Shown here piece after piece: positions 11,646 through 61,344 of a stretch of DNA of 64,000 nt. Source of the DNA: Candidatus Bipolaricaulota bacterium (GTDB lineage Bacteria; Bipolaricaulota; Bipolaricaulia; Bipolaricaulales; Bipolaricaulaceae). The notes under the pieces were generated by a model. It searched no databases. It saw nothing but the letters and a program-made list of their open reading frames with translations, and was not told the DNA's origin. The position numbers were made by a program, and so were the translations under genes. The stretch spans positions 1,061 to 65,060 of the forward strand of contig JACIWK010000003.1 in the NCBI GenBank assembly GCA_014360985.1, written 5' to 3'. Position 1 is the stretch's first letter. Each line of letters opens with the position of its first letter.

Positions 11646-11712
11646 ACCCTAAGAATGAAGGTCTGACCCCGTAGTTGACGTAGAGTTGACCCCGTAGTAG
11701 TTGACCCCGTAG
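11646..11712. repeat. Dispersed copy of the RAYT-flanking 25-bp repeat followed by tandem TGACCCCGTAG units
   Basis: ACCCTAAGAATGAAGGTCTGACCCC (11646-11670) is the exact reverse complement of 60417-60441 and 59216-59240. Confidence 0.9.
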
Positions 11713-11749
11713 TAACGTAATAACGGAACGTAGAGATCACTGGACCTCG

Positions 11750-33700: not shown

Positions 33701-35004
33701 GGTACTTCGGGACGGACGGGGTGCGGGGGGTGGCGGGGGTCGAGCTCACCTGTGAGCTCGCGTTCCGCCTCGCCCGTGCCGCGGGCCATGCCTTCCGGCC
33801 CAACCGCGCGCTCCTTGCCATGGACACCCGCCTCTCCGGCCCGGCGCTCGCGGGCGCCTGCGCCGCGGGCCTCGCCGAGACCGGCTGCGACGTGGACCTG
33901 GCCGGCGTCCTCCCCTCCCCAGCCGTCTCCCACCTCGTCCCGCGACGGGGGTACGGCCTGGGGCTCGTCGTCTCCGCGTCCCACAACCCGCCCCAGGATA
34001 ACGGGATCAAGCTCTACGGCCCCCACGGGCTCAAGCTCTCCCCGGAGGACGAGGAGAGGGTGGAAGCGCTACTCGATGCCCCCAGCGGGGGCGGGCCCCT
34101 CGGCGCGGTGCGCGGCTGGACCGGGGCGGAAGCGGAGTACGCGGCCATTCTCCGCGCCGCCGTCCCCGACCTCTCGCTCCGCGGCGTGAAGGTCGTCCTC
34201 GACTGTGCCCACGGGGCGACGGCCCGTCTCGCACCGCGGCTCTTCGCCGAGCTCGGGGCGGACGTAGCCGTGATGGGCGGGGAACCTGACGGGGCGCGGA
34301 TCAACGAGACCGGCGCCGCGGCGATGGCCGTCCTCTCCCGGGAGGTTCCCGCCCGGGGGACGGAGATCGGGATCGCCTTCGACGGCGACGGCGACCGGGC
34401 CCTGTTCGTGGACAATCGGGGGAACGTTGTGGAGGGGGACCAGCTCATGGCGGCGCTCGCCCCCCATCTCCTCGCCTGGGGGGAGCTCTCCTCGCCAGGG
34501 GTCGTGTTCACCGTCCTCGCCAACCTGGGGGCCGAGGCGTACCTTCGGGAGCGGGGGTTCCGGGTGGACCGGGTGCCGGTGGGGGATCGGAACGTGGCGT
34601 GGGCGATGCGGGAGCGAGGGGTAGACCTCGGGGGCGAGCCGTCGGGGCACGTGATCTTCCGCCACTACACGGCGACCGGGGACGGGATCCTCACCGGCCT
34701 CCTCGTCCTGCGGGCCCTGGCGCGGATGGGAACCGACCTCGCGTCCCTCGTCGCCCCAGTTCCCCTCTACCCCCAGGTGCGGGTCGACGTCCCCGTGGCC
34801 GACCGGGAGGCGGCCCTCGCCCGCCCGGCCGTGCAGGCCGCGATCCGGGAGGTCCAGGCCCAGCTCGATGGTCGAGGGCGCCTCGTCGTGCGCCCCTCGG
34901 GCACCCAGCCGGTGATCCGGATCATGGTCGAGGGCCCCGACGTGGGGGACCTCCACGCCCTCGTCTCTCGGATCGCGGGCGAGATCGTCCAGGAGGTGAG
35001 ATGA
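33697..35004 (+). CDS. glmM: Phosphoglucosamine mutase
   Basis: YFGTDGVRG, SASHNP, DGDGDR, GGEPSGH, VVRPSGTQP. Confidence 0.9.
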   Translation: MRYFGTDGVRGVAGVELTCELAFRLARAAGHAFRPNRALLAMDTRLSGPALAGACAAGLAETGCDVDLAGVLPSPAVSHLVPRRGYGLGLVVSASHNPPQDNGIKLYGPHGLKLSPEDEERVEALLDAPSGGGPLGAVRGWTGAEAEYAAILRAAVPDLSLRGVKVVLDCAHGATARLAPRLFAELGADVAVMGGEPDGARINETGAAAMAVLSREVPARGTEIGIAFDGDGDRALFVDNRGNVVEGDQLMAALAPHLLAWGELSSPGVVFTVLANLGAEAYLRERGFRVDRVPVGDRNVAWAMRERGVDLGGEPSGHVIFRHYTATGDGILTGLLVLRALARMGTDLASLVAPVPLYPQVRVDVPVADREAALARPAVQAAIREVQAQLDGRGRLVVRPSGTQPVIRIMVEGPDVGDLHALVSRIAGEIVQEVR

Positions 35005-36314
35005 ACCCCAAGGAACAGCTTCTGGCGAGGATCCGCGACCACACCGCGGTGGTGGGCGTAGTGGGTCTCGGGTACGTCGGGCTTCCGTTCGCGGTGGAGA
35101 AGGCGAAGGTGGGGTTCCGCGTCCTCGGGGTCGAGCAGAACCCCGCGCGTGCGGACAAGGTCAACCGGGGCGAGAACTACATCAGCGACGTTCGGGACGA
35201 AGAACTCCGCGACCTCGTTGCCCGGGGGCTCATCCGCGCCGACACGGACTTCGCCCACGTTCCGGAGATGGACGTGATCGTGATCTGCGTCCCCACCCCC
35301 CTCACCAAGAACCTCACCCCCGACCTGAGCTATGTGGAGCGGGTGACGCGGGAGGTGGCCCGCAACCTCCGACGCGGGCAGCTCGTCAGCCTGGAGTCGA
35401 CCACCTACCCCGGGACGACCGAGGAGGTCATGCTTCCCGTCCTCGCCTCCTCGGGCCTGAAGGTCGAGGTGGACTTCTTCCTTGTTCACTCCCCTGAGCG
35501 GGTGGATCCGGGGAACAAGCGGTACACCACGAAGAACACGACGAAGGTCGTGGGCGGCGTCGGCCCGGAGTCCCTCGACGTTGCCCTCGCCTTCTACGGG
35601 CAGACGATCGAACGGGTCGTCCCCGTGTCCAGCGCCAAGGCCGCTGAGCTCGTCAAGGTGTTCGAGAACACGTTCCGGGCGGTGAACATCGCCCTGGTGA
35701 ACGAGCTCGCTCTCCTGTGCGACCGGATGGGCCTCAACGTGTGGGAGGTTCTGGACGCGGCGTTCACGAAACCGTTCGGGATCATGCCGTTCTGGCCCGG
35801 GCCGGGCGTGGGCGGCCACTGCATCCCCCTCGACCCCCACTACCTCGAATGGAAAGCTAAAGAGCTCAACTTCAACACCCACTTCATCGCCCTGGCCGGC
35901 GAGATCAACCGCCGGATGCCGGAGTTCGTGCGGGACAAGGCGATCCGGGTCCTGAACAGGCTCGGCGTCGCCCCGTCCCAGGCACGGATCCTCGTCCTGG
36001 GGGCCGCCTACAAGAGGGACCTCGCCGATCACCGGGAGTCCCCTGCGGTGGAGGTGATCCGGCTTCTCCGGGAGTACGGGGCCGACGTGGTCTACCACGA
36101 CCCGTACGTCCCCACCCTACACGACGAGGGAGTTGACCTCGACAGCATCCCCCTGACCGTGGACGAGCTCCAGAAGAGCGACCTCGTGGTCATCACCACC
36201 GACCACACCTCCGTGGACTACGGGTTCGTGGTCGCCCACGCCCGCCACGTCCTCGACACCCGCAACGCGACCCGAGGCGTAGCTGCGGGCCGGGACAGGA
36301 TCACCCTGCTATGA
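35001..36314 (+). CDS. UDP-GlcNAc 6-dehydrogenase (WbpA-like)
   Basis: [56 protein letters not shown]. Confidence 0.92.
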
Positions 36315-37252
36315 AGGTGGGCCTGATCGGTGCCGGAGGGTGGGGGAAAAACCTCGCCCGGGTTCTGGCGGAGCTCGGCGCCCTGGGGGGGATCGCCGAC
36401 CTCAGTCCCGAGGCCCGCGAGGAGCTTCGGCAGCGCTATCCTGGGGTGGCGATCCACACCGACCACCGGGCCCTCCTCGCGGCGGAGGTGCCCGCTGTGG
36501 CCATCGCCACCCCGGCCGCGACCCACTTCGCCCTCGCCCGCGAGGCCTTGAAGGCGGGGAAGCACGTGTTCGTGGAGAAGCCCCTCGCCCTGCGGCGGGA
36601 GGAGGCGGCCGAACTGGCCGACCTCGCGGACCGCGCGGGGCGGATCCTCATGGTGGGCCACCTCCTCCTCTACCAACCCGCCGCGCGCTGGATCGGGGAG
36701 TTCCTCCGCTCAGGGGGCGTGGGCAGCGTGTGGAGCCTGCACCAAGAACGGCTCAATTTGGGCACGGTCCGGACGGTGGAGAACGCGCTGTGGAGCCTGG
36801 GCGTCCACGACGTGGCCGTGCTCCTCCACCTGGTAGGGGAGCGACCCACAATGGTGAAGTGCGTGGGCCAGCGGGCGTCCCCGAGCGGTGTCGAGGACGA
36901 TGCGTACCTTCACCTGGGCTTCCCGAGTCAGATCCAGGCCCACGTGCACGTGTCGTGGCTGTGGCCGGAGAAGCGACGCCGGCTCACCGTGGTGGGGTCC
37001 GAGGCGATGCTCGTGTACGACGAGCTCGCCCAAGAGGTTACCCTCCACCGCAAGCGGATCGGAGAAGATCTCAGGCCTGCCGACAAGGGGACCGAGATCG
37101 TGTTCCAGGGCGCGGCGGAGCCCCTGCGGCTCGAGATGGAGGAGTTCCTGTCCTGCATTCGGGATGGACGGCGACCACTCTCGGACGGCCGGAGAGCGGT
37201 GGAGGTGGTGGGCGTGCTCGAGGAGGCGAGCCGCCAGTTGGGGGGGAGATGA
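36311..37252 (+). CDS. Gfo/Idh/MocA oxidoreductase (WbpB-like 3-dehydrogenase)
   Basis: [21 protein letters not shown]; position between wbpA- and wbpD-like genes. Confidence 0.85.
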
Positions 37253-37845
37253 GCGACTACTTCGTGCACGAATCCGCGTACGTGGACCCCGGGGCCAAAG
37301 TCGGCCCAGGGACGAAGATCTGGCACTTCAGCCACGTGATGGGCGGGGCCGAGATCGGGGCGAACTGCAGCCTGGGCCAGAACGTGTTCGTGGCCGATCG
37401 GGTGAAGATCGGGAACCATGTCAAGATCCAGAACAACGTGTCCGTGTACGAGGGCGTGGTCCTGGAGGACTACGTGTTCTGTGGTCCGAGCTGTGTGTTC
37501 ACCAACGTGCGCACACCCCGGTCCGCGTTCCCCCGCAACCGCCCCGAGGACTACGTACCGACGGTGGTCAAGCACGGGGCGTCGATCGGGGCCAATGCCA
37601 CGGTTGTCTGCGGGGTGACGATCGGCGAGTGGGCGTTCGTTGCCGCTGGCGCGGTGGTGACGAAGGACGTGCCGCCCTACGCCCTCGTGGCCGGCGTCCC
37701 CGCCCGCATAATTGGCTGGGCCTGTGAGTGCGGCGTGCCATTACGATTCGAAGGCGGCGGTGACCAGGAGGCGACGTGCGCCGAGTGCGGACGGGTGTAT
37801 CGGCTGAAAGGGGAGGGCATGGAGTTGGTGCGGGAGAGCTCGTAG
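37249..37845 (+). CDS. wbpD: UDP-2-acetamido-3-amino-sugar N-acetyltransferase
   Basis: [60 protein letters not shown]. Confidence 0.9.
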
Positions 37846-37870
37846 CATGTGGCTTGTAGCCAGTGGAGCA
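37843..37870 (+). repeat. G-rich heptamer arm (4 units) starting at the wbpD stop codon
   Basis: TAGCATG TGGCTTG TAGCCAG TGGAGCA. Confidence 0.8.
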
Positions 37871-37884
37871 GACCAGGAGTGTGC

Positions 37885-38397
37885 ATGCCGGAGTGCGTGG
37901 AGAACCTTGAGGTCTGGCAGCGTGGCGTCAGGCTCGTGAAGGCCGTATACGAGATCACCCGTCACTGGCCATCGGAAGAGCAGTATGGTCTGACCTCCCA
38001 GTTCCGCCGCGCGGCTGTCTCCGTACCGACCAACATCGCTGAGGGGGTCGGTCGAGGGGGACGCCGCGAGATCGTGCGGTTCGCCCGGGTTTCGCTCGGC
38101 TCACTGTACGAGCTGAGCACGTTGTTGGTCATCGCTGAGGGACTGGGGTGTGTCAGCGAAGGGTCGGCGGCGAAGATGCGTGCCGAGATCGATGCCCTCA
38201 CCCGGCAGCTGGCGGCCTTCATCCGTTACCAGCAGGGTCGCCTGCCCGGCCGGCCTCCAGGTTCCACCCACGCTCCACCCCCGGATGGAGACGCCGCCGG
38301 CCCCCCCTACAAACCACAAGCTTTGATCCACTCGCCACAAGCCACACGCCACAAGCCAAGAACCGCAAGGAGAACAGATGACCATTCCCATCCTTGA
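37885..38397 (+). CDS. Four helix bundle protein (23S rRNA IVS protein / Avd-like fold) with repeat-encoded C-terminal tail
   Basis: LEVWQ....L...VY..T..WP.EE.YGLTSQ.RRAAVS.PTNIAEG..R......RF...SLGS.YE; low-complexity tail runs through the heptamer arm. Confidence 0.9.
   Translation: MPECVENLEVWQRGVRLVKAVYEITRHWPSEEQYGLTSQFRRAAVSVPTNIAEGVGRGGRREIVRFARVSLGSLYELSTLLVIAEGLGCVSEGSAAKMRAEIDALTRQLAAFIRYQQGRLPGRPPGSTHAPPPDGDAAGPPYKPQALIHSPQATRHKPRTARRTDDHSHP
38307..38369 (+). repeat. C-rich heptamer arm (9 units), complementary to the 37843 arm
   Basis: CTACAAA CCACAAG CTTTGAT CCACTCG CCACAAG CCACACG CCACAAG CCAAGAA CCGCAAG. Confidence 0.88.
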
Positions 38398-39742
38398 CCT
38401 CAAACGCCAGTACGCGTCCATCAAGCCCCAGATCGATGCTGCCATCCAGCGGGTGGTGGAGTCGGGGCGGTTCATCCTCGGCCCCGAGGTCGAGGCGTTG
38501 GAGCAGGAGATCGCCGCCTACTGCGGCGTCAAGCACGCGATCGGGGTGGCGAGCGGTACCGACGCGTTGCTCCTCTCGCTGCGGGCGCTTGGGATCGGGC
38601 CGGGGGATGGGGTGATCGTCCCCAGCTTCACCTTCTTCGCCACCGCCGGCGCGGTCCACAACGTGGGGGCAACCCCCGTCTTCTGCGACATCGACCCCCG
38701 CACCTTCAACCTTGATCCCGACTCGGTTCGAGAGATCATGGCCCGTGGCCCGTGGCTCGTAGCCAGTGGGACCCCACAGGGCATTCCTCCCACATGCTAC
38801 AAGCCACAGGCAACTAGCCACATCACATGCCACTCGCCACACGCCACTCGCCCCAGGCCGCGCGCCATCATCCCCGTCCACCTCTACGGCCAGATGGCGG
38901 ACATGGACGCAATCATGGAGCTCGCCCACGAGTTCGGCCTCTATGTGATCGAAGACGCCGCCCAGTCCATCGGCGCCGAGTACGTTGGGCAAGTAGCTAG
39001 TAGCCAGTGGCCTGTAGATGAAGGCTCCCCACCCCCCACAAGCCACCTCCCGCTCTCCACAGGCCACAGGCCCCAGGCCCCAGGCCACAAGCTAGGAGCA
39101 ACTAGCCACAAGCCACAAACCAAGAAAGCCGGCACCGTCGGCCATCTCGGCTGTTTCTCCTTCTTCCCCACCAAGAACCTCGGGGCGTACGGGGACGGGG
39201 GGATGGTCGTGACGAACGACGACGAGCTCGCCGAGCGGGTGCGGATGCTGCGCGTGCACGGGTCCAAGCCCAAGTACTACCACCACATCGTGGGGTACAA
39301 CTCCCGGCTCGATGCCCTCCAGGCCGCGATCCTGAGGGCGAAGCTCCCCCATCTGGACGAGTGGACAGCGGCGCGGAGGAGACTCGCCGCCCGGTACGAC
39401 GAGCTCCTGGCTGGGGTGCCGGGGATCGAGCTCCCCCACCGGGCGGCGGGGCAGACCCACATCTTCCACCAGTACACGATCCGAGTGTTGGACGGCAAGC
39501 GCGACGCGTTGCGCGAGCACCTCAAGGCGCAGGGAATCGGGACCGAGATCTACTACCCATTGCCATTGCACCTCCAGGAGTGCTTTGCCCATCTCGGGTA
39601 CCAAGAAGGGGACCTCCCCGAGAGCGAGAAGGCAAGCCGCGAGGCGTTGTCCTTGCCCATGTTTCCCGAACTCACCGATGAGGAGCAGGCTTGCGTCGCC
39701 AACTCCATCCGCTCCTTCTTGGGCTCAAGCTGCCAACCATGA
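38378..39742 (+). CDS. DegT/DnrJ/EryC1/StrS aminotransferase (WbpE-like) with two in-frame repeat insertions
   Basis: SGTDAL, IEDAAQSIGA, FSFFPTKNLG.YGDGG, GYNSRLDALQAA; 454 aa, two low-complexity loops. Confidence 0.92.
   Translation: MTIPILDLKRQYASIKPQIDAAIQRVVESGRFILGPEVEALEQEIAAYCGVKHAIGVASGTDALLLSLRALGIGPGDGVIVPSFTFFATAGAVHNVGATPVFCDIDPRTFNLDPDSVREIMARGPWLVASGTPQGIPPTCYKPQATSHITCHSPHATRPRPRAIIPVHLYGQMADMDAIMELAHEFGLYVIEDAAQSIGAEYVGQVASSQWPVDEGSPPPTSHLPLSTGHRPQAPGHKLGATSHKPQTKKAGTVGHLGCFSFFPTKNLGAYGDGGMVVTNDDELAERVRMLRVHGSKPKYYHHIVGYNSRLDALQAAILRAKLPHLDEWTAARRRLAARYDELLAGVPGIELPHRAAGQTHIFHQYTIRVLDGKRDALREHLKAQGIGTEIYYPLPLHLQECFAHLGYQEGDLPESEKASREALSLPMFPELTDEEQACVANSIRSFLGSSCQP
38739..38857 (+). 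repeat. In-frame inverted heptamer insert 1 in the aminotransferase
   Basis: TGGCCCG TGGCCCG TGGCTCG TAGCCAG TGG followed by CCACAGG..CCACATG CTACAAG CCACAGG CAACTAG..CCACTCG CCACACG CCACTCG CCCCAGG. Confidence 0.88.
38986..39126 (+). repeat. In-frame inverted heptamer insert 2 in the aminotransferase
   Basis: TAGCTAG TAGCCAG TGGCCTG, then 13 consecutive in-phase C-rich heptamers at 39036-39126. Confidence 0.9.
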
Positions 39743-39764
39743 CGAGTGGACTCCCGACCCCGGC

Positions 39765-39834
39765 CCACGGACGCTGGACCATGGACCATGCACTTCGTCC
39801 CACACGCCACTCGCCACAGGCCACGTACAGCATG
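39765..39834 (+). repeat. C-rich heptamer array (10 units) ending at the TAGAAT -10 box of the MNT-HEPN pair
   Basis: CCACGGA CGCTGGA CCATGGA CCATGCA CTTCGTC CCACACG CCACTCG CCACAGG CCACGTA CAGCATG. Confidence 0.85.
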
Positions 39835-39871: not shown

Positions 39872-40216
39872 TTGGCCTCACGAACCGTTCCTGCGGATGT
39901 GCTGGATGACATCGTCCGGCGGATCGTAGCGGTGGCTGATCCAGACAAGATCATCCTCTTCGGCTCCGCAGCCCGGGGGGAGATGCGCCTGAGCAGCGAC
40001 TTGGACCTCCTCGTCGTCAAGTCCGGCGTCCCTCATCGCGGACGGCTGACGGAGGAGATCTACATGGGCCTCTCGGGCGTCGGGAGAGCTGCCGACATCA
40101 TCGTCGTTACCCCCGAGGACATAGAACGATATCGCGATGTGCATGCAACCGTGATCAAGCCCGCCATCCGCGAGGGGAGGGTGATCTATGAGCGCGAAGC
40201 AGCGACCACCGGATGA
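39872..40216 (+). CDS. Minimal nucleotidyltransferase (MNT) antitoxin
   Basis: IILFGSAARGE....SDLDLLVV motif, 114 aa. Confidence 0.9.
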   Translation: MASRTVPADVLDDIVRRIVAVADPDKIILFGSAARGEMRLSSDLDLLVVKSGVPHRGRLTEEIYMGLSGVGRAADIIVVTPEDIERYRDVHATVIKPAIREGRVIYEREAATTG

Positions 40217-40586
40217 CCCCATCGAGTGGTTGAACAGGGCGCGGAGCAACCTCCTGCAGAGCCAGGCGCGACTCGAAGGGGTGTACCTGGAGGACCTGGC
40301 TTTCGCGGCTCAACAAGCGGCAGAGAAGGCGATCAAGGCCGTCCTCATCCATCTTGGCGTGGAGTTCCCGTACACCCATGACCTGACAGCACTGCTCACG
40401 CTCGTGCAGCAGCAAGGGTTCTCTGTGCCGAGGGAGGTAGCCCAAGCAGGCCGGCTCACTCGGCATGCAGTGATCGCCCGCTACCCGGGACTCGGGGAAC
40501 CTGTGACCGAAGAGGAGTACGCGGAGGCAGTGACGATTGCGGAGGGTGTTGTGCAGTGGGCGCAGTCCATTGTGGCCGGCCAATGA
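40188..40586 (+). CDS. HEPN domain toxin
   Basis: WLNRA..NL, F.AQQAAEKAIKA, FPYTHDL..L, RYPG; overlaps the MNT gene. Confidence 0.9.
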   Translation: MSAKQRPPDDPIEWLNRARSNLLQSQARLEGVYLEDLAFAAQQAAEKAIKAVLIHLGVEFPYTHDLTALLTLVQQQGFSVPREVAQAGRLTRHAVIARYPGLGEPVTEEEYAEAVTIAEGVVQWAQSIVAGQ

Positions 40587-40608: not shown

Positions 40609-40747
40609 CCACTCGCCATGGACCATGGACCCCTCGCACCACGCACTACGGACCATGGACCATGCACTTCGTCCCACACGCCACTCCCCACAAGCCGACC
40701 CCGCACCACGCACTATGGACCATGGACCATGGACCATGCACTCCGAC
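40609..40747 (+). repeat. C-rich heptamer array (about 19 units, small phase slips) ending at the wecB start
   Basis: CCATGGA, CCACGCA, CCACACG and CCACAAG units; 40650-40686 is identical to 39776-39812. Confidence 0.88.
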
Positions 40748-40749
40748 CC

Positions 40750-41961
40750 ATGCGCCTAGCCAACGTCGTCGGTGCCCGTCCTCAGTTCATCAAGCTCGCT
40801 CCGGTCCTGAAGGCCATCGACCAGCACAACCGGGAGCACCCCGAGGCCCAGGTTGAGGAGATCTTGATCCACACGGGGCAGCACTACGACTACGAGATGT
40901 CCCAGGTGTTCTTCGACGAGCTGGGGTTGAAGGCACCTGACCACCATTTGGGCGTTAGGTCAGGGTCCCATGGCCAGCAGACCGGGGAGATGCTCAAGCG
41001 GATCGAAGAGGTGCTTCTCAAGGAGAAGCCCGATCTGGTGGCGGTCTACGGCGACACGAACACCACCCTGGCCGGGGCCCTGGCAGCGGCCAAGCTGCAT
41101 GTCCCGGTGGCCCACGTGGAGGCGGGCTTACGCAGCTTCAACCGGAAGATGCCCGAGGAGATCAACCGCGTGCTCACCGACCATGTGGCGGATCTCCTCT
41201 TCTGCCCCACCGAGACCGCAGTACAGAACCTGAAAAGGGAGGGTTTCACCAACATCGTCAACGATGGCCATCTCCTCCCGCTTGACTATGCACCACGGAC
41301 TCCAGGCGACAAGCCACGCACTACACGCCACAAGCCACTAGCCATCAATGTTGGCGACGTGATGTACGATGCGGTGCTCCAGTACGCCGAGCTTGCCGAA
41401 GCGAAGTCAGGGATCCTCGAGCGCTTAAAGCTTGAGCTCAGAGGCTACGCCCTGGCCACCGTCCACCGCGCGGAGAACACCGACGATCCAGTGCGTCTCA
41501 GGGCGATCTTCCAGGGGCTGGTGAAGCTTGCCCGGGAGGGGCTGACGGTGGTGGTTCCCTTGCACCCCCGCACCCGTAATGCCCTCTCTTCTCTCTCCCT
41601 TACCCCTGACCCTTCGCCCTGCAATCTGCTCATAATCGAGCCGGTCTCTTACCTGGACATGCTCGTGCTCGAGAAGAACGCCCGGGTTATTCTGACGGAT
41701 TCCGGCGGGGTGCAAAAGGAGGCCTTCTTCTTCCGCGTCCCCTGCGTGACCCTCCGGGAGGAGACCGAGTGGGTGGAGACGGTGGAGGCGGGTTGGAATG
41801 TGCTCGTGGGCGGTGACCCGGAACGGATTCTCCAGGCGGCCCTAATGGCTCAGCAAGGAGAGGAGACCACTTGGCCCTACGGTAACGGCCGGGCGGCGGA
41901 GAGGATTGCCGGCTTTCTGGAACGCGGATTATGCTGGGGATGGCGCCATGAACGAGCCTAG
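40750..41961 (+). CDS. wecB: UDP-N-acetyl-hexosamine(uronate) 2-epimerase, non-hydrolysing (WecB/WbpI-like)
   Basis: VVGARPQFIK, HTGQHYD, VYGDTNTTLAG, HVEAGLRSFN..MPEEINR, TDSGGVQKEA, ETEW. Confidence 0.93.
   Translation: MRLANVVGARPQFIKLAPVLKAIDQHNREHPEAQVEEILIHTGQHYDYEMSQVFFDELGLKAPDHHLGVRSGSHGQQTGEMLKRIEEVLLKEKPDLVAVYGDTNTTLAGALAAAKLHVPVAHVEAGLRSFNRKMPEEINRVLTDHVADLLFCPTETAVQNLKREGFTNIVNDGHLLPLDYAPRTPGDKPRTTRHKPLAINVGDVMYDAVLQYAELAEAKSGILERLKLELRGYALATVHRAENTDDPVRLRAIFQGLVKLAREGLTVVVPLHPRTRNALSSLSLTPDPSPCNLLIIEPVSYLDMLVLEKNARVILTDSGGVQKEAFFFRVPCVTLREETEWVETVEAGWNVLVGGDPERILQAALMAQQGEETTWPYGNGRAAERIAGFLERGLCWGWRHERA
41286..41348 (+). repeat. In-frame C-rich heptamer run (9 units) inside wecB
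   Basis: CTATGCA CCACGGA CTCCAGG CGACAAG CCACGCA CTACACG CCACAAG CCACTAG CCATCAA. Confidence 0.8.
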
Positions 41962-54936: not shown

Positions 54937-55062
54937 ATGCCCCTGGAGGAGCGAGAGGTGCTGGGCCGCCGCGGGCGGGAGTACGTGGAGGAGCACCACG
55001 ACATCCGGAAGCTGGTGGAGAGGTTGGAGCGCGTTCTGATGGACGTGGTCCATGGTCCGTAG
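54937..55062 (+). pseudogene. 3' remnant of a GT4 glycosyltransferase
   Basis: MPLEEREVLGRRGREYVEEHHDIRKLVERLERVL resembles GT4 C-terminal helices; stop codon supplied by a heptamer TAG. Confidence 0.6.
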
Positions 55063-55101
55063 TGCGTGGTCCGGAGGGAAGGGCTTGTGGCGTGTGGGGA
55101 A
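55046..55101 (+). repeat. G-rich heptamer arm (8 units)
   Basis: TGGTCCA TGGTCCG TAGTGCG TGGTCCG GAGGGAA GGGCTTG TGGCGTG TGGGGAA; first 25 bp are the exact reverse complement of 40638-40662. Confidence 0.85.
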
Positions 55102-60416: not shown

Positions 60417-61344
60417 GGGGTCAGACCTTCATTCTTAGGGTTTTCCCCGTCTCCGCTCCACCTTCTTCGCGATCGTGCTGATGGTCGAGTAGAGCAACCC
60501 CACATGGGCTCCTACTTCGGTGAGCGTATAGCCGTGCACCCGCACCGCCTCGTGGATGCGCTCGTCGCGGGTCGCCCGGTCGGTGACACCGGCGAACAGC
60601 TCGTCGAGGCTCGGTCGGGCCGCCAGCCGCTCGCGTTGACGGTACTCGGGGGTGAGGGGCTTCTGCTGGAGGCGCGGGCGGAGGCTCTCGACGAACGAGG
60701 GGCGCCCGAGGACCCAACCTGCCTGAAGTTCGTCCCATACCCGCACGCCACGCCCCTGGTGCACGAACCGCCGGTACGCGCGGACAGCGCGCTCCCAGTC
60801 GGAGTCGAACTGGGCGAGGATCCAATCTACGGTGAGGTAGGCGGGCGGCTCGATGTAGCCCGCGGTGGCGCGGTAGCTGCTCCACGGCCAGTCGCGGGGC
60901 ACGCGGACTAGACCCGCACGCACAGGGTTCAGGACGACGTAGCGGGCGAGCTCGAGCAGGTAGCTGTCCTTCTCCACGAGGATGGACTTGAACCGTCCTT
61001 GAAAGAGGTGGCCGATTCGGTCATGGCGGCGGTTGAACCACTGGGTGTACACGCCATTCAGTAGCTGCATTCCACGGGATAGGCTACCCTCGGGGGTCTC
61101 GACCACGAGGTGGTAGTGGTTGTCCATCAGGCAGTACGCGTGGCAGATCCAGCGGTGTCGCGCGACGACGTCGCTCAGCGTGTCGAGGAAGCTCCGGCGG
61201 TCTGCGTCGTCGCAGAAGACCGCCTCGCGGGCGTTCCCGCGGCTGGTGAGGTGGTACAGAGCCCCGGCGTACTCCAACCGCAGCGGTCGAGCCATGGCAA
61301 GGTGAGTATAGCGGCAAGGACCCTAAAAATGAAGGTCTGACCCC
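60417..61344 (-). mobile_element. RAYT-type Y1 transposase unit bounded by 25-bp inverted repeats (1 mismatch)
   Basis: Left 60417-60441 GGGGTCAGACCTTCATTCTTAGGGT; right 61320-61344 ACCCTAAAAATGAAGGTCTGACCCC. Confidence 0.8.
60435..61295 (-). CDS. REP-associated tyrosine transposase (HUH/Y1) with C-terminal HTH
   Basis: RPLRLEY.GALYHLTSRGN, AYCLMDNHYHL (HUH), GHLFQGRFKS, YVVLNPVRAG, WPWSSY. Confidence 0.92.
   Translation of the reverse strand: MARPLRLEYAGALYHLTSRGNAREAVFCDDADRRSFLDTLSDVVARHRWICHAYCLMDNHYHLVVETPEGSLSRGMQLLNGVYTQWFNRRHDRIGHLFQGRFKSILVEKDSYLLELARYVVLNPVRAGLVRVPRDWPWSSYRATAGYIEPPAYLTVDWILAQFDSDWERAVRAYRRFVHQGRGVRVWDELQAGWVLGRPSFVESLRPRLQQKPLTPEYRQRERLAARPSLDELFAGVTDRATRDERIHEAVRVHGYTLTEVGAHVGLLYSTISTIAKKVERRRGKP

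Follow-up and report, generated by a model that had tools for sequence, protein, structure and literature searches.

In Coxiella burnetii, the 23S rRNA gene contains an intervening sequence (IVS) with a gene of the PF05635 family, a 28-bp inverted-repeat stem and tandem GACAGAT heptamers; it is excised by RNase III, and its open reading frame (ORF) is reported to be decaying and not made in vivo (PMC4990558). A mobile origin has been proposed for ORF-bearing 23S IVSs (Warrier et al. 2016, PMC4990558), which are also the subject of Ralph and McClelland 1993, as cited in PMC4990558. Here we describe a locus of similar design in a 64,000-nucleotide (nt) stretch of DNA from a Candidatus Bipolaricaulota bacterium (assembly GCA_014360985.1, contig JACIWK010000003.1, positions 1,061 to 65,060 of the forward strand), referred to below as the window. 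A four-helix-bundle (4HB) gene of the PF05635 family was found there between inverted arrays of 7-nt repeats, at the junction of a wbpD-like and a wbpE-like gene. We put the probability at approximately 0.6 that this unit of about 530 bp is an IVS-type insertion cassette, that is, a 4HB gene with its own ribosome-binding site inside inverted 7-nt arrays. To our knowledge, the 23S rRNA intervening sequences, like the ORF conserved in them, have lacked an explanation ever since the early 1990s.

The source genome (G000) is a metagenome-assembled genome of 1.56 Mb with 67.6% G+C and a completeness of 94%, and the window corresponds to C23:1061-65060 in our contig numbering. Direct reading of the sequence and profile matches gave the following features for the cassette.

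37843..37866, + strand: left arm, 3.4 heptamers, TAGCATG TGGCTTG TAGCCAG TGG (direct sequence reading)
37875..37879, + strand: AGGAG ribosome-binding site of the 4HB gene, 5 nt ahead of its ATG (sequence)
37885..38397, + strand: 4HB gene, PF05635 / TIGR02436, with the domain at 37900-38214 (profile matches)
38307..38369, + strand: right arm, nine CCACAAG-type heptamers, each beginning with C (direct sequence reading)
38367..38380, + strand: AAGGAG ribosome-binding site (38367-38372) and ATG (38378-38380) of the wbpE-like gene (sequence)

The reverse complement of the left arm reads CCACTGG CTACAAG CCACATG CTA, i.e., the left arm is the reverse-complement form of CCACAAG, and the stop codon TAG of the wbpD-like gene (37843-37845) is its opening triplet. 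The left arm is G/T-rich and has TAG in two frames. The right arm (CTACAAA CCACAAG CTTTGAT CCACTCG CCACAAG CCACACG CCACAAG CCAAGAA CCGCAAG) is C/A-rich and nearly without stop triplets, and the frame of the 4HB gene is open all the way through it, giving the protein a proline-rich tail (38215-38397) whose stop codon at 38395-38397 lies inside the start of wbpE. The AAGGAG of the wbpE-like gene is made of the last AAG of the right arm and the following GAG, overlapping the last heptamer. A repeat search aligned 37838-37870 with 38324-38356 as inverted arms of 33 nt that are 82% complementary and 453 nt apart. Across the genome, 28 lag-7 arrays were counted, compared to 2-8 arrays for lags 4, 5, 8, 10 and 11, none of which is a multiple of three either, and 9 of the 28 fell in the gene cluster of the cassette. 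An earlier account of this DNA made from its letters alone (the preliminary description) had the left arm begin at the wbpD stop codon and the right arm run as nine CCACAAG-type units, each C-initial, up to the Shine-Dalgarno sequence of the next gene; all of this agrees with the coordinates above. Its statement that variation is concentrated at heptamer positions 5-6 holds for the four central CCACNNG units but not for the outer units, which vary elsewhere.

The cassette resembles the 23S rRNA IVSs of C. burnetii (S23p) and Leptospira in that a PF05635-family gene lies inside terminal inverted repeats forming a long stem. It also shares with the Coxiella IVS its size class (428 nt there and about 530 nt here) and the presence of tandem heptamers near the start codon. 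In contrast to the 23S IVSs, it is located between protein-coding genes of an operon and not in a 23S rRNA helix (25, 45 or 9), both of its arms are built of heptamer arrays, and an arm gives the host stop codon and abuts the host ribosome-binding site. Whereas the Coxiella ORF is reportedly decaying, the cassette protein is under purifying selection, and whereas RNase III excision was reported in Coxiella, cleavage of the cassette would be an analogy. The family link to 23S rRNA IVSs and to Avd, the accessory protein of diversity-generating retroelements, which the preliminary description had drawn, is in print (PMC4990558; PMC10053308). Its claim of an undescribed system stands for the setting outside rRNA, but the same gene-in-heptamer-stem arrangement has been published for the Coxiella 23S IVS. 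In the searchable literature, no report was found that links the 4HB family to inverted heptamer arms outside rRNA.

Heptamer arrays by themselves, located both between and within genes, have been described as dispersed GGACCGG x4 elements in Geobacter metallireducens (PMC2700814) and as GGGNATC repeats in Xanthomonas and Nostoc (PMC4692102). In contrast to the cassette, those reports mention neither an associated gene family nor inverted arrays that pair across a gene, and regulatory or G-quadruplex roles were proposed for the arrays. Short inverted-repeat hairpins at gene boundaries are also typical of miniature inverted-repeat transposable elements (MITEs) and repetitive extragenic palindrome (REP)-like elements, and gene-less copies of the cassette hairpin could be non-autonomous relatives in the same sense. 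In contrast to MITE/REP-like elements, the cassette has no transposase or visible target duplication, and its arm sequence varies between copies in one genome. It also differs from systems of REPs and their associated tyrosine transposases (RAYTs), because the REP-like repeat and the Y1 genes of this genome are separate from the heptamer arrays.

The 4HB protein matched PF05635 with an E value of 3e-32 and 111.4 bits (cut-off 33.8), and TIGR02436, 'four helix bundle protein', with 108.4 bits (cut-off 24). The conserved family motif R-x3-S-x3-N-x2-E (Zhang et al. 2013, PMC3936711; Lin et al. 2006) was present, and R37, S41, N45 and E48 were invariant in a 21-sequence alignment. By sequence match, the closest solved structure was 2GSC (Xcc0516, E 7e-21), an entry with five chains. 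The ratio of nonsynonymous to synonymous substitution rates (dN/dS) over the 4HB domain was 0.12 between the G000 gene and its G003 ortholog and 0.09-0.19 in 8 of the 9 measurable ortholog pairs, the G011 copy being left out; one very close pair, with 15 differences, gave 0.84. The decaying copy in G011 had a dN/dS of 0.30-0.38, a lower profile score and an eroded right arm. Ratios of about 0.1-0.2 indicate that the 4HB protein is kept by purifying selection. If pentameric, the protein could plausibly bind the heptamer arrays, although we regard its recognition of the arms as doubtful. It matched none of the anti-phage defence families in PADLOC. Genes of the PF05635 family have been noted in cas loci (PMC3936711).

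Avd is a homologous four-helix-bundle protein: 2GSC and the Avd structure 4DWL are reported to be homologous pentamers, and among the accessory domains of diversity-generating retroelements PF05635 is reported as the commonest (PMC10053308). A role as an Avd-type factor of such a retroelement, or as the partner of a reverse transcriptase with the repeats serving as template-like sequences, is nevertheless extremely unlikely here, because the whole genome, at 94% completeness, gave no RVT_1 match. Moreover, no template/variable repeat pair was evident in this genome, and no Avd structure was among the solved-structure sequence matches of the protein at E 0.01 or better.

The flanks of other family members were scored for inverted arms in two samples. 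The first contained 30 PF05635 loci from 19 of 30 relatives, of which the 25 with full flanks were scored with a cut-off of 15. The second contained 80 loci picked only by protein similarity, 77 of them scored with a cut-off of 18, from Acidobacteriota, Planctomycetota, Chloroflexota, Bacteroidota, Proteobacteria, Gemmatimonadota, Nitrospirota and two archaeal bins; it was drawn with a 7-sequence subfamily alignment and therefore represents one subfamily, with a QxRRAAVSVP pattern. Cultured carriers of an armed cassette in the second sample include Rubrivirga sp. IMCC45206, Mucilaginibacter lutimaris and Brevundimonas sp. SH203. Among the relatives, the cognate arm score reached 15 or more in 19 of 25 loci compared to none of 52 shifted windows; non-cognate pairs were unusable as a control in this sample because it contains orthologous cassettes. 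In the wide sample, the score reached 18 or more in 55 of 77 loci compared to 1 of 149 shifted windows and 3 of 300 non-cognate pairs. Nearly all 4HB genes among the loci of the relatives were bracketed by inverted arrays, and the heptamers differed locus by locus (for example GAGTCNN/NNGACTC, GTGACGS/SCGTCAC, GGGTTCR/YGAACCC, GTAGTCC/GGACTAC and AGTTGGA/TCCAACT-like arms). Since cognate scores exceeded those of the controls, the arms belong to the 4HB gene, each cassette having its own arm sequence. In 72 distinct armed cassettes the period was 7 in 61, 8 in 7 and 9 in 4, and the whole unit spanned a median of 489 nt.

These findings clearly show that the module is real, non-random and recurrent. 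They also bear out two points of the preliminary description, namely that family members would be flanked by inverted 7-periodic arms (55 of 77 loci compared to 1 of 149 shifted controls) and that gene and arms form one unit, as seen from the arm enrichment across the family and the recurrence of the module.

The two arms of a cassette were not equivalent with respect to the coding strand. In the left arm, G outnumbered C in 60 of 70 cassettes (p 8e-10). The left arm held more stop triplets than the right in 45 loci and fewer in 10, and stops in all three frames were present in 30 of 72 left arms compared to 11 of 72 right arms. The stop codons of the upstream host genes mostly ended between -15 and +35 nt from the start of the arm, and in all variants of the wbpD-wbpE junction the downstream arm led directly into a ribosome-binding site, the cassette thus replacing a 4-nt stop/start overlap with a stop codon, a hairpin and a ribosome-binding site. 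With arms that are inverted copies of each other, ribosomes coming from the other side would meet the same stops on the opposite strand. The placement of stops may also account for the period itself: 7 not being a multiple of three, a stop-bearing unit of this length passes through all three frames in three units. The stop-rich upstream arm would terminate the upstream gene at once, making the insert tolerable in an operon, and the stop-poor downstream arm would run into the ribosome-binding site for the next gene. The neighbours were co-oriented with the cassette on both sides in 34 cases and opposed on both sides in 11; these counts are rough, because orientation was called from the longest ORF, which is unreliable at 67% GC and at several loci gave the wrong orientation for the known wbpD flank.

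At the wbpD-wbpE junction, relatives were found to be empty or to carry different cassettes. In G024 and G028, which belong to other families of the class, the junction was empty and wbpD and wbpE overlapped by 4 nt (GTGA and ATGA, respectively). A type A cassette with CCACAAG arms was present in G000 and G003 and was decaying in G011, a type B cassette with GAGTC arms was present in G010 and G012, and a type C cassette with GTCCGTG-like arms was present in G017, G027, G008 and G016. Metagenome relatives had type A-like, GAACC-armed and GGTTCR-armed versions. In total, at least 4 different 4HB types occupied this junction, and all of the dozen-plus cassettes were in sense orientation. The 4HB types were 26-54% identical to one another, and each had a closer relative (58-63%) at some other junction, which argues that they are separate arrivals and did not diverge in place. 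In G010, the stop codon is followed directly by the initial 14 nt of a type A left arm and then by a GAGTC array. Next comes a stump, 40 nt long, of the start of a type C gene, and the type B gene lies behind another GAGTC array, so that this junction reads as a palimpsest of earlier cassettes. Empty-site alleles in relatives had been named earlier as a test of the insertion idea, and those of G024 and G028 favour an insert at the DNA level. From these comparisons we consider it quite probable that the cassette is DNA-inserted and prone to turnover. The comparisons place its insertion exactly on the stop/start overlap of two translationally coupled genes, wbpD and wbpE.

The same data bear on another explanation, in which the hairpin and its protein are a regulatory module kept by the host to control the processing, stability or translational coupling of the mRNA of the polysaccharide operon, and presence or absence reflects vertical inheritance with loss. 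Purifying selection on the 4HB protein, the predominance of co-oriented neighbours in the rough counts given above (34 compared to 11), the stop codon and ribosome-binding site at the base of the stem, and the conservation across the class of a second copy next to tRNA and signal recognition particle (SRP) RNA genes are all consistent with such a role. It is quite unlikely, however, given that the module is also found at junctions that have nothing in common (those of hdr-like genes, of tRNA/SRP RNA genes and of sugar genes) and in many phyla, that at least four unrelated types occupy one junction with remnants of earlier ones persisting, and that 76 of 80 wbpE homologs fetched from metagenomes had no 4HB gene in the surrounding DNA that was fetched.

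The second 4HB gene of G000 was located at C38:63341-63655 (L002), between a tRNA gene and a large SRP RNA gene (Rfam matches). This placement recurred in other genera and also in a different family of the class (L013, L018, L023 and L030), and some of these copies were clearly armed, e.g., L013 with AGTTGGA-type arms.

Heptamer arrays without a 4HB gene were found inside the wbpE-like gene itself. Its protein is 454 amino acids long compared to 374-380 amino acids in the insert-free orthologs of G011, G024 and G028, and an ortholog alignment confined the excess to two fixed places, hot spots 1 and 2, each of which holds a hairpin.

38739..38867, + strand: gene-less CCACAAG-family hairpin, in frame in wbpE, hot spot 1 (fold z -5.2 sense, -4.9 antisense)
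38992..39122, + strand: gene-less CCACAAG-family hairpin, in frame in wbpE, hot spot 2 (fold z -3.2 and -3.0)

The hairpin of hot spot 1 was absent from G011, G024 and G028, and hot spot 2 lies just ahead of a conserved FFPTKNLG stretch. At both hot spots the relatives had different lengths and different heptamers. All 11 length variants were in frame and stop-free, which indicates that the inserts are translated and not spliced out; presumably, only stop-free arrays at permissive loops survive in coding sequence. Four arm families were represented, and the heptamer family inside wbpE tracked that of the neighbouring cassette (permutation p 0.0025). The exception was G010, in which the hairpin inside wbpE was still of type A, as fits the palimpsest history of its junction. 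The match between in-gene arrays and cassette arms suggests that, at the level of DNA, the arrays have spread or become homogenised across several hundred bases. Such local spreading in DNA would have given rise to the gene-less arrays inside wbpE.

It could be argued from the gene-less arrays that heptamer arrays are an independent repeat phenomenon, for instance arrays prone to slippage or self-spreading hairpins, and that the 4HB gene lands or stays in existing hairpin loops, the arms being its targets. Gene-less hairpins of the same layout do exist, both at G000:C12:30520-30640 and inside wbpE, as do solo arrays and the published arrays of G. metallireducens (PMC2700814) and of Xanthomonas and Nostoc (PMC4692102). 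We consider this explanation rather unlikely for three reasons. A gene dropped either way into a symmetric hairpin would not be expected to show the arm polarity described above (60 of 70 cassettes). Related 4HB proteins have related heptamers across genomes, e.g., the GGGTTCR arms of L007, L015, L028 and L144. Finally, which arm family is found in the neighbouring coding sequence depends on the type of cassette.

Several further arrays and hairpins were recorded. The gene-less hairpin at G000:C12:30520-30640 is intercistronic and consists of a TAG stop, a left arm, a 40-nt loop, a GGACCAC-type right arm, AAGGAGG and an ATG. A solo CCACAAG-type array lies in frame inside the wecB-like gene at 41293-41348 (PLDYAPRTPGDKPRTTRHKPLAIN), without an inverted partner and with a fold z of 0.3. 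At 55040-55095, the 3' end of a gene holds a solo left-arm-type array (GTGGTCC ATGGTCC GTAGTGC GTGGTCC, then GGCTTGTGGCGTGTGG) that contains the TAG and has no right-arm partner within 1.5 kb. A dispersed hairpin repeat, GGGCGGAC(N4-10)GTCCGCCC, had 17 copies in the genome; GGGCGGAC/GTCCGCCC hairpins occurred at C10:15500-15760, C34:430-660 and C8:3150-3350, and several of the 17 copies directly adjoined GGACCAC-type heptamer arrays. In the metagenome contig Ga0315547_1000447 (L139), a wbpE ortholog had an empty upstream junction, short extra segments at both hot spots and, within its N-terminal domain, a third insert (GDSARGITRDGNIPRAKV).

The behaviour of the arms in RNA was assessed from predicted folds. 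In the minimum-energy fold of 37830-38380, the arm stem closed the cassette on both strands; the antisense fold had a z of -3.2, the A-C mismatches of the sense strand becoming G-U pairs. The ribosome-binding site of the wbpE-like gene was unpaired in the predicted sense-strand fold. Pairing of the arms would place the stop codon of wbpD beside the ribosome-binding site of wbpE. The arms may pair in the operon transcript, looping the 4HB gene out, and, if the analogy to rRNA intervening sequences holds, the stem would then be a likely substrate of RNase III, which the genome does encode. Pairing and processing in RNA are possible in our estimate, at somewhat less than even odds. An Rfam search over 36-43 kb gave nothing real and no rRNA, with one sub-threshold microRNA-hairpin match to the first hairpin inside wbpE.

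A number of observations weigh against an IVS-type insertion cassette, or against parts of it. The sense-strand fold was no better than that of shuffled sequences (z -1.4) and contained four A-C mismatches, and over the 72 cassettes G-U (107) and A-C (94) mismatches were balanced in the arms and transversions (197) were as common, with no signal of selection for RNA pairing on the sense strand. The earlier proposal that the arms pair to loop the gene out therefore retains the stem that closes the predicted folds but lacks an RNA-specific mismatch signature. The arms are very unequal, with 24 nt (3.4 units) on the left and 63 nt (9 units) on the right, which leaves most of the right arm without a partner. 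The second 4HB copy of G000 had no clear inverted arms, the NCGGTT arrays that flank it being direct. Approximately one-sixth of the cassettes seemed antisense to their neighbours by the noisy ORF heuristic, and the high armed fraction may hold only for the subfamilies sampled. The filled and empty alleles came from different families and not from near-identical strains (the best match in a metagenome scan for near-identical relatives was 81% identical), and loss and gain are indistinguishable at single nodes because the compared genomes are distant. No target-site duplication was visible between filled and empty junctions of these distant genomes, and the sequence comparisons revealed no movement, excised form or candidate enzyme. 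The 4HB gene is the sole ORF of the cassette, which has no transposase.

An enzyme acting in trans could be sought among the Y1 (IS200/RAYT-like) transposases, which act on single-stranded DNA hairpins and of which the genome has four Y1_Tnp genes, one of them in the window. Y1 and 4HB genes co-occurred among 31 relatives (13 with both, 6 with only 4HB, 1 with only Y1 and 11 with neither; Fisher p 0.002) and within the genus (7, 1, 0 and 6, respectively), although this co-occurrence is confounded by ancestry and by overall mobile-element load. It is very unlikely that these transposases move the cassettes and hairpins: six genomes had 4HB genes but no Y1 gene, and the Y1 genes are flanked by a repeat of their own, CCTAAGAATGAAGGTCTGACCCCG, none of whose 10 copies was within 600 nt of a heptamer array.

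The four Y1_Tnp genes are at 60936-61259 on the minus strand of the window, C1:168726, C2:75248 and C17:1048, and have a C-terminal helix-turn-helix-like tail. The CCTAAGAATGAAGGTCTGACCCCG inverted repeat flanks the window copy and is also found upstream of at least one other copy; its window positions are 11653, 59216, 60417 and 61327, with 10 in the genome. At 11653-11714, the copy of this Y1-associated repeat is followed by 2.5 copies of a 15-nt tandem repeat, CGTAGTAGTTGACCC.

Returning to the insertion cassette, its parts can be joined in a wider proposal that we hold to be speculative and unlikely as a whole. The 4HB genes with their inverted heptamer arrays would form a pan-bacterial class of minimal, self-contained elements, in which the pentamer recognises its own arrays on single-stranded nucleic acid and helps the hairpin to be inserted, copied or maintained at junctions that are transcribed. 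The rRNA IVSs would be copies that landed in rRNA, gene-less hairpins, those translated within wbpE among them, would be non-autonomous derivatives served in cis or in trans by the cassette next to them, and the 7-nt period would have been selected for three-frame stops.

The locus presents the gene-in-hairpin design of an IVS within an ordinary operon, with a protein clearly kept by selection, and amounts to a natural experiment, as one junction is empty in some relatives and holds at least four cassette types in others, with arm-type repeats in the neighbouring enzyme gene. The function of IVS proteins and the mobility of the element become concretely testable at such loci. The locus would also account for oversized, repeat-riddled enzymes in metagenome-assembled genomes and for the occurrence of the 4HB family in unrelated operons, cas loci included.

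The cassette is part of an operon with the gene order oxidoreductase, wbpD-like, 4HB, wbpE-like, nucleotidyltransferase/HEPN pair and wecB-like. Besides the features listed above, the following were assigned.

34599-36314: long ORF at the upstream end of the operon, with the look of a sugar-nucleotide dehydrogenase from its translation alone
36311-37252: GFO/IDH/MocA oxidoreductase gene (profile match)
37255..37845, + strand: wbpD-like hexapeptide acetyltransferase gene (Pfam Hexapep; NCBIfam sugar acetyltransferase families)
38378..39742, + strand: wbpE-like DegT-family aminotransferase gene (Pfam DegT_DnrJ_EryC1, E 2e-123, in two stretches)

The wecB-like gene has the look of a UDP-N-acetylglucosamine 2-epimerase from its translation alone, and the wbp gene names are family-level matches only. 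Judged by these matches, the operon is of a sugar-nucleotide type.

The wbpE-like and wecB-like genes are separated by the pair of an MntA-like nucleotidyltransferase gene (39872-40216) and a HEPN gene (40188-40586). The pair is flanked by a 65-nt direct repeat of heptamer arrays, the copies at 39758-39822 and 40632-40696 being 86% identical. In G028 this junction was empty and the wbpE-like and wecB-like genes overlapped by ATGA; in G010 and G012 it held other small inserted genes.

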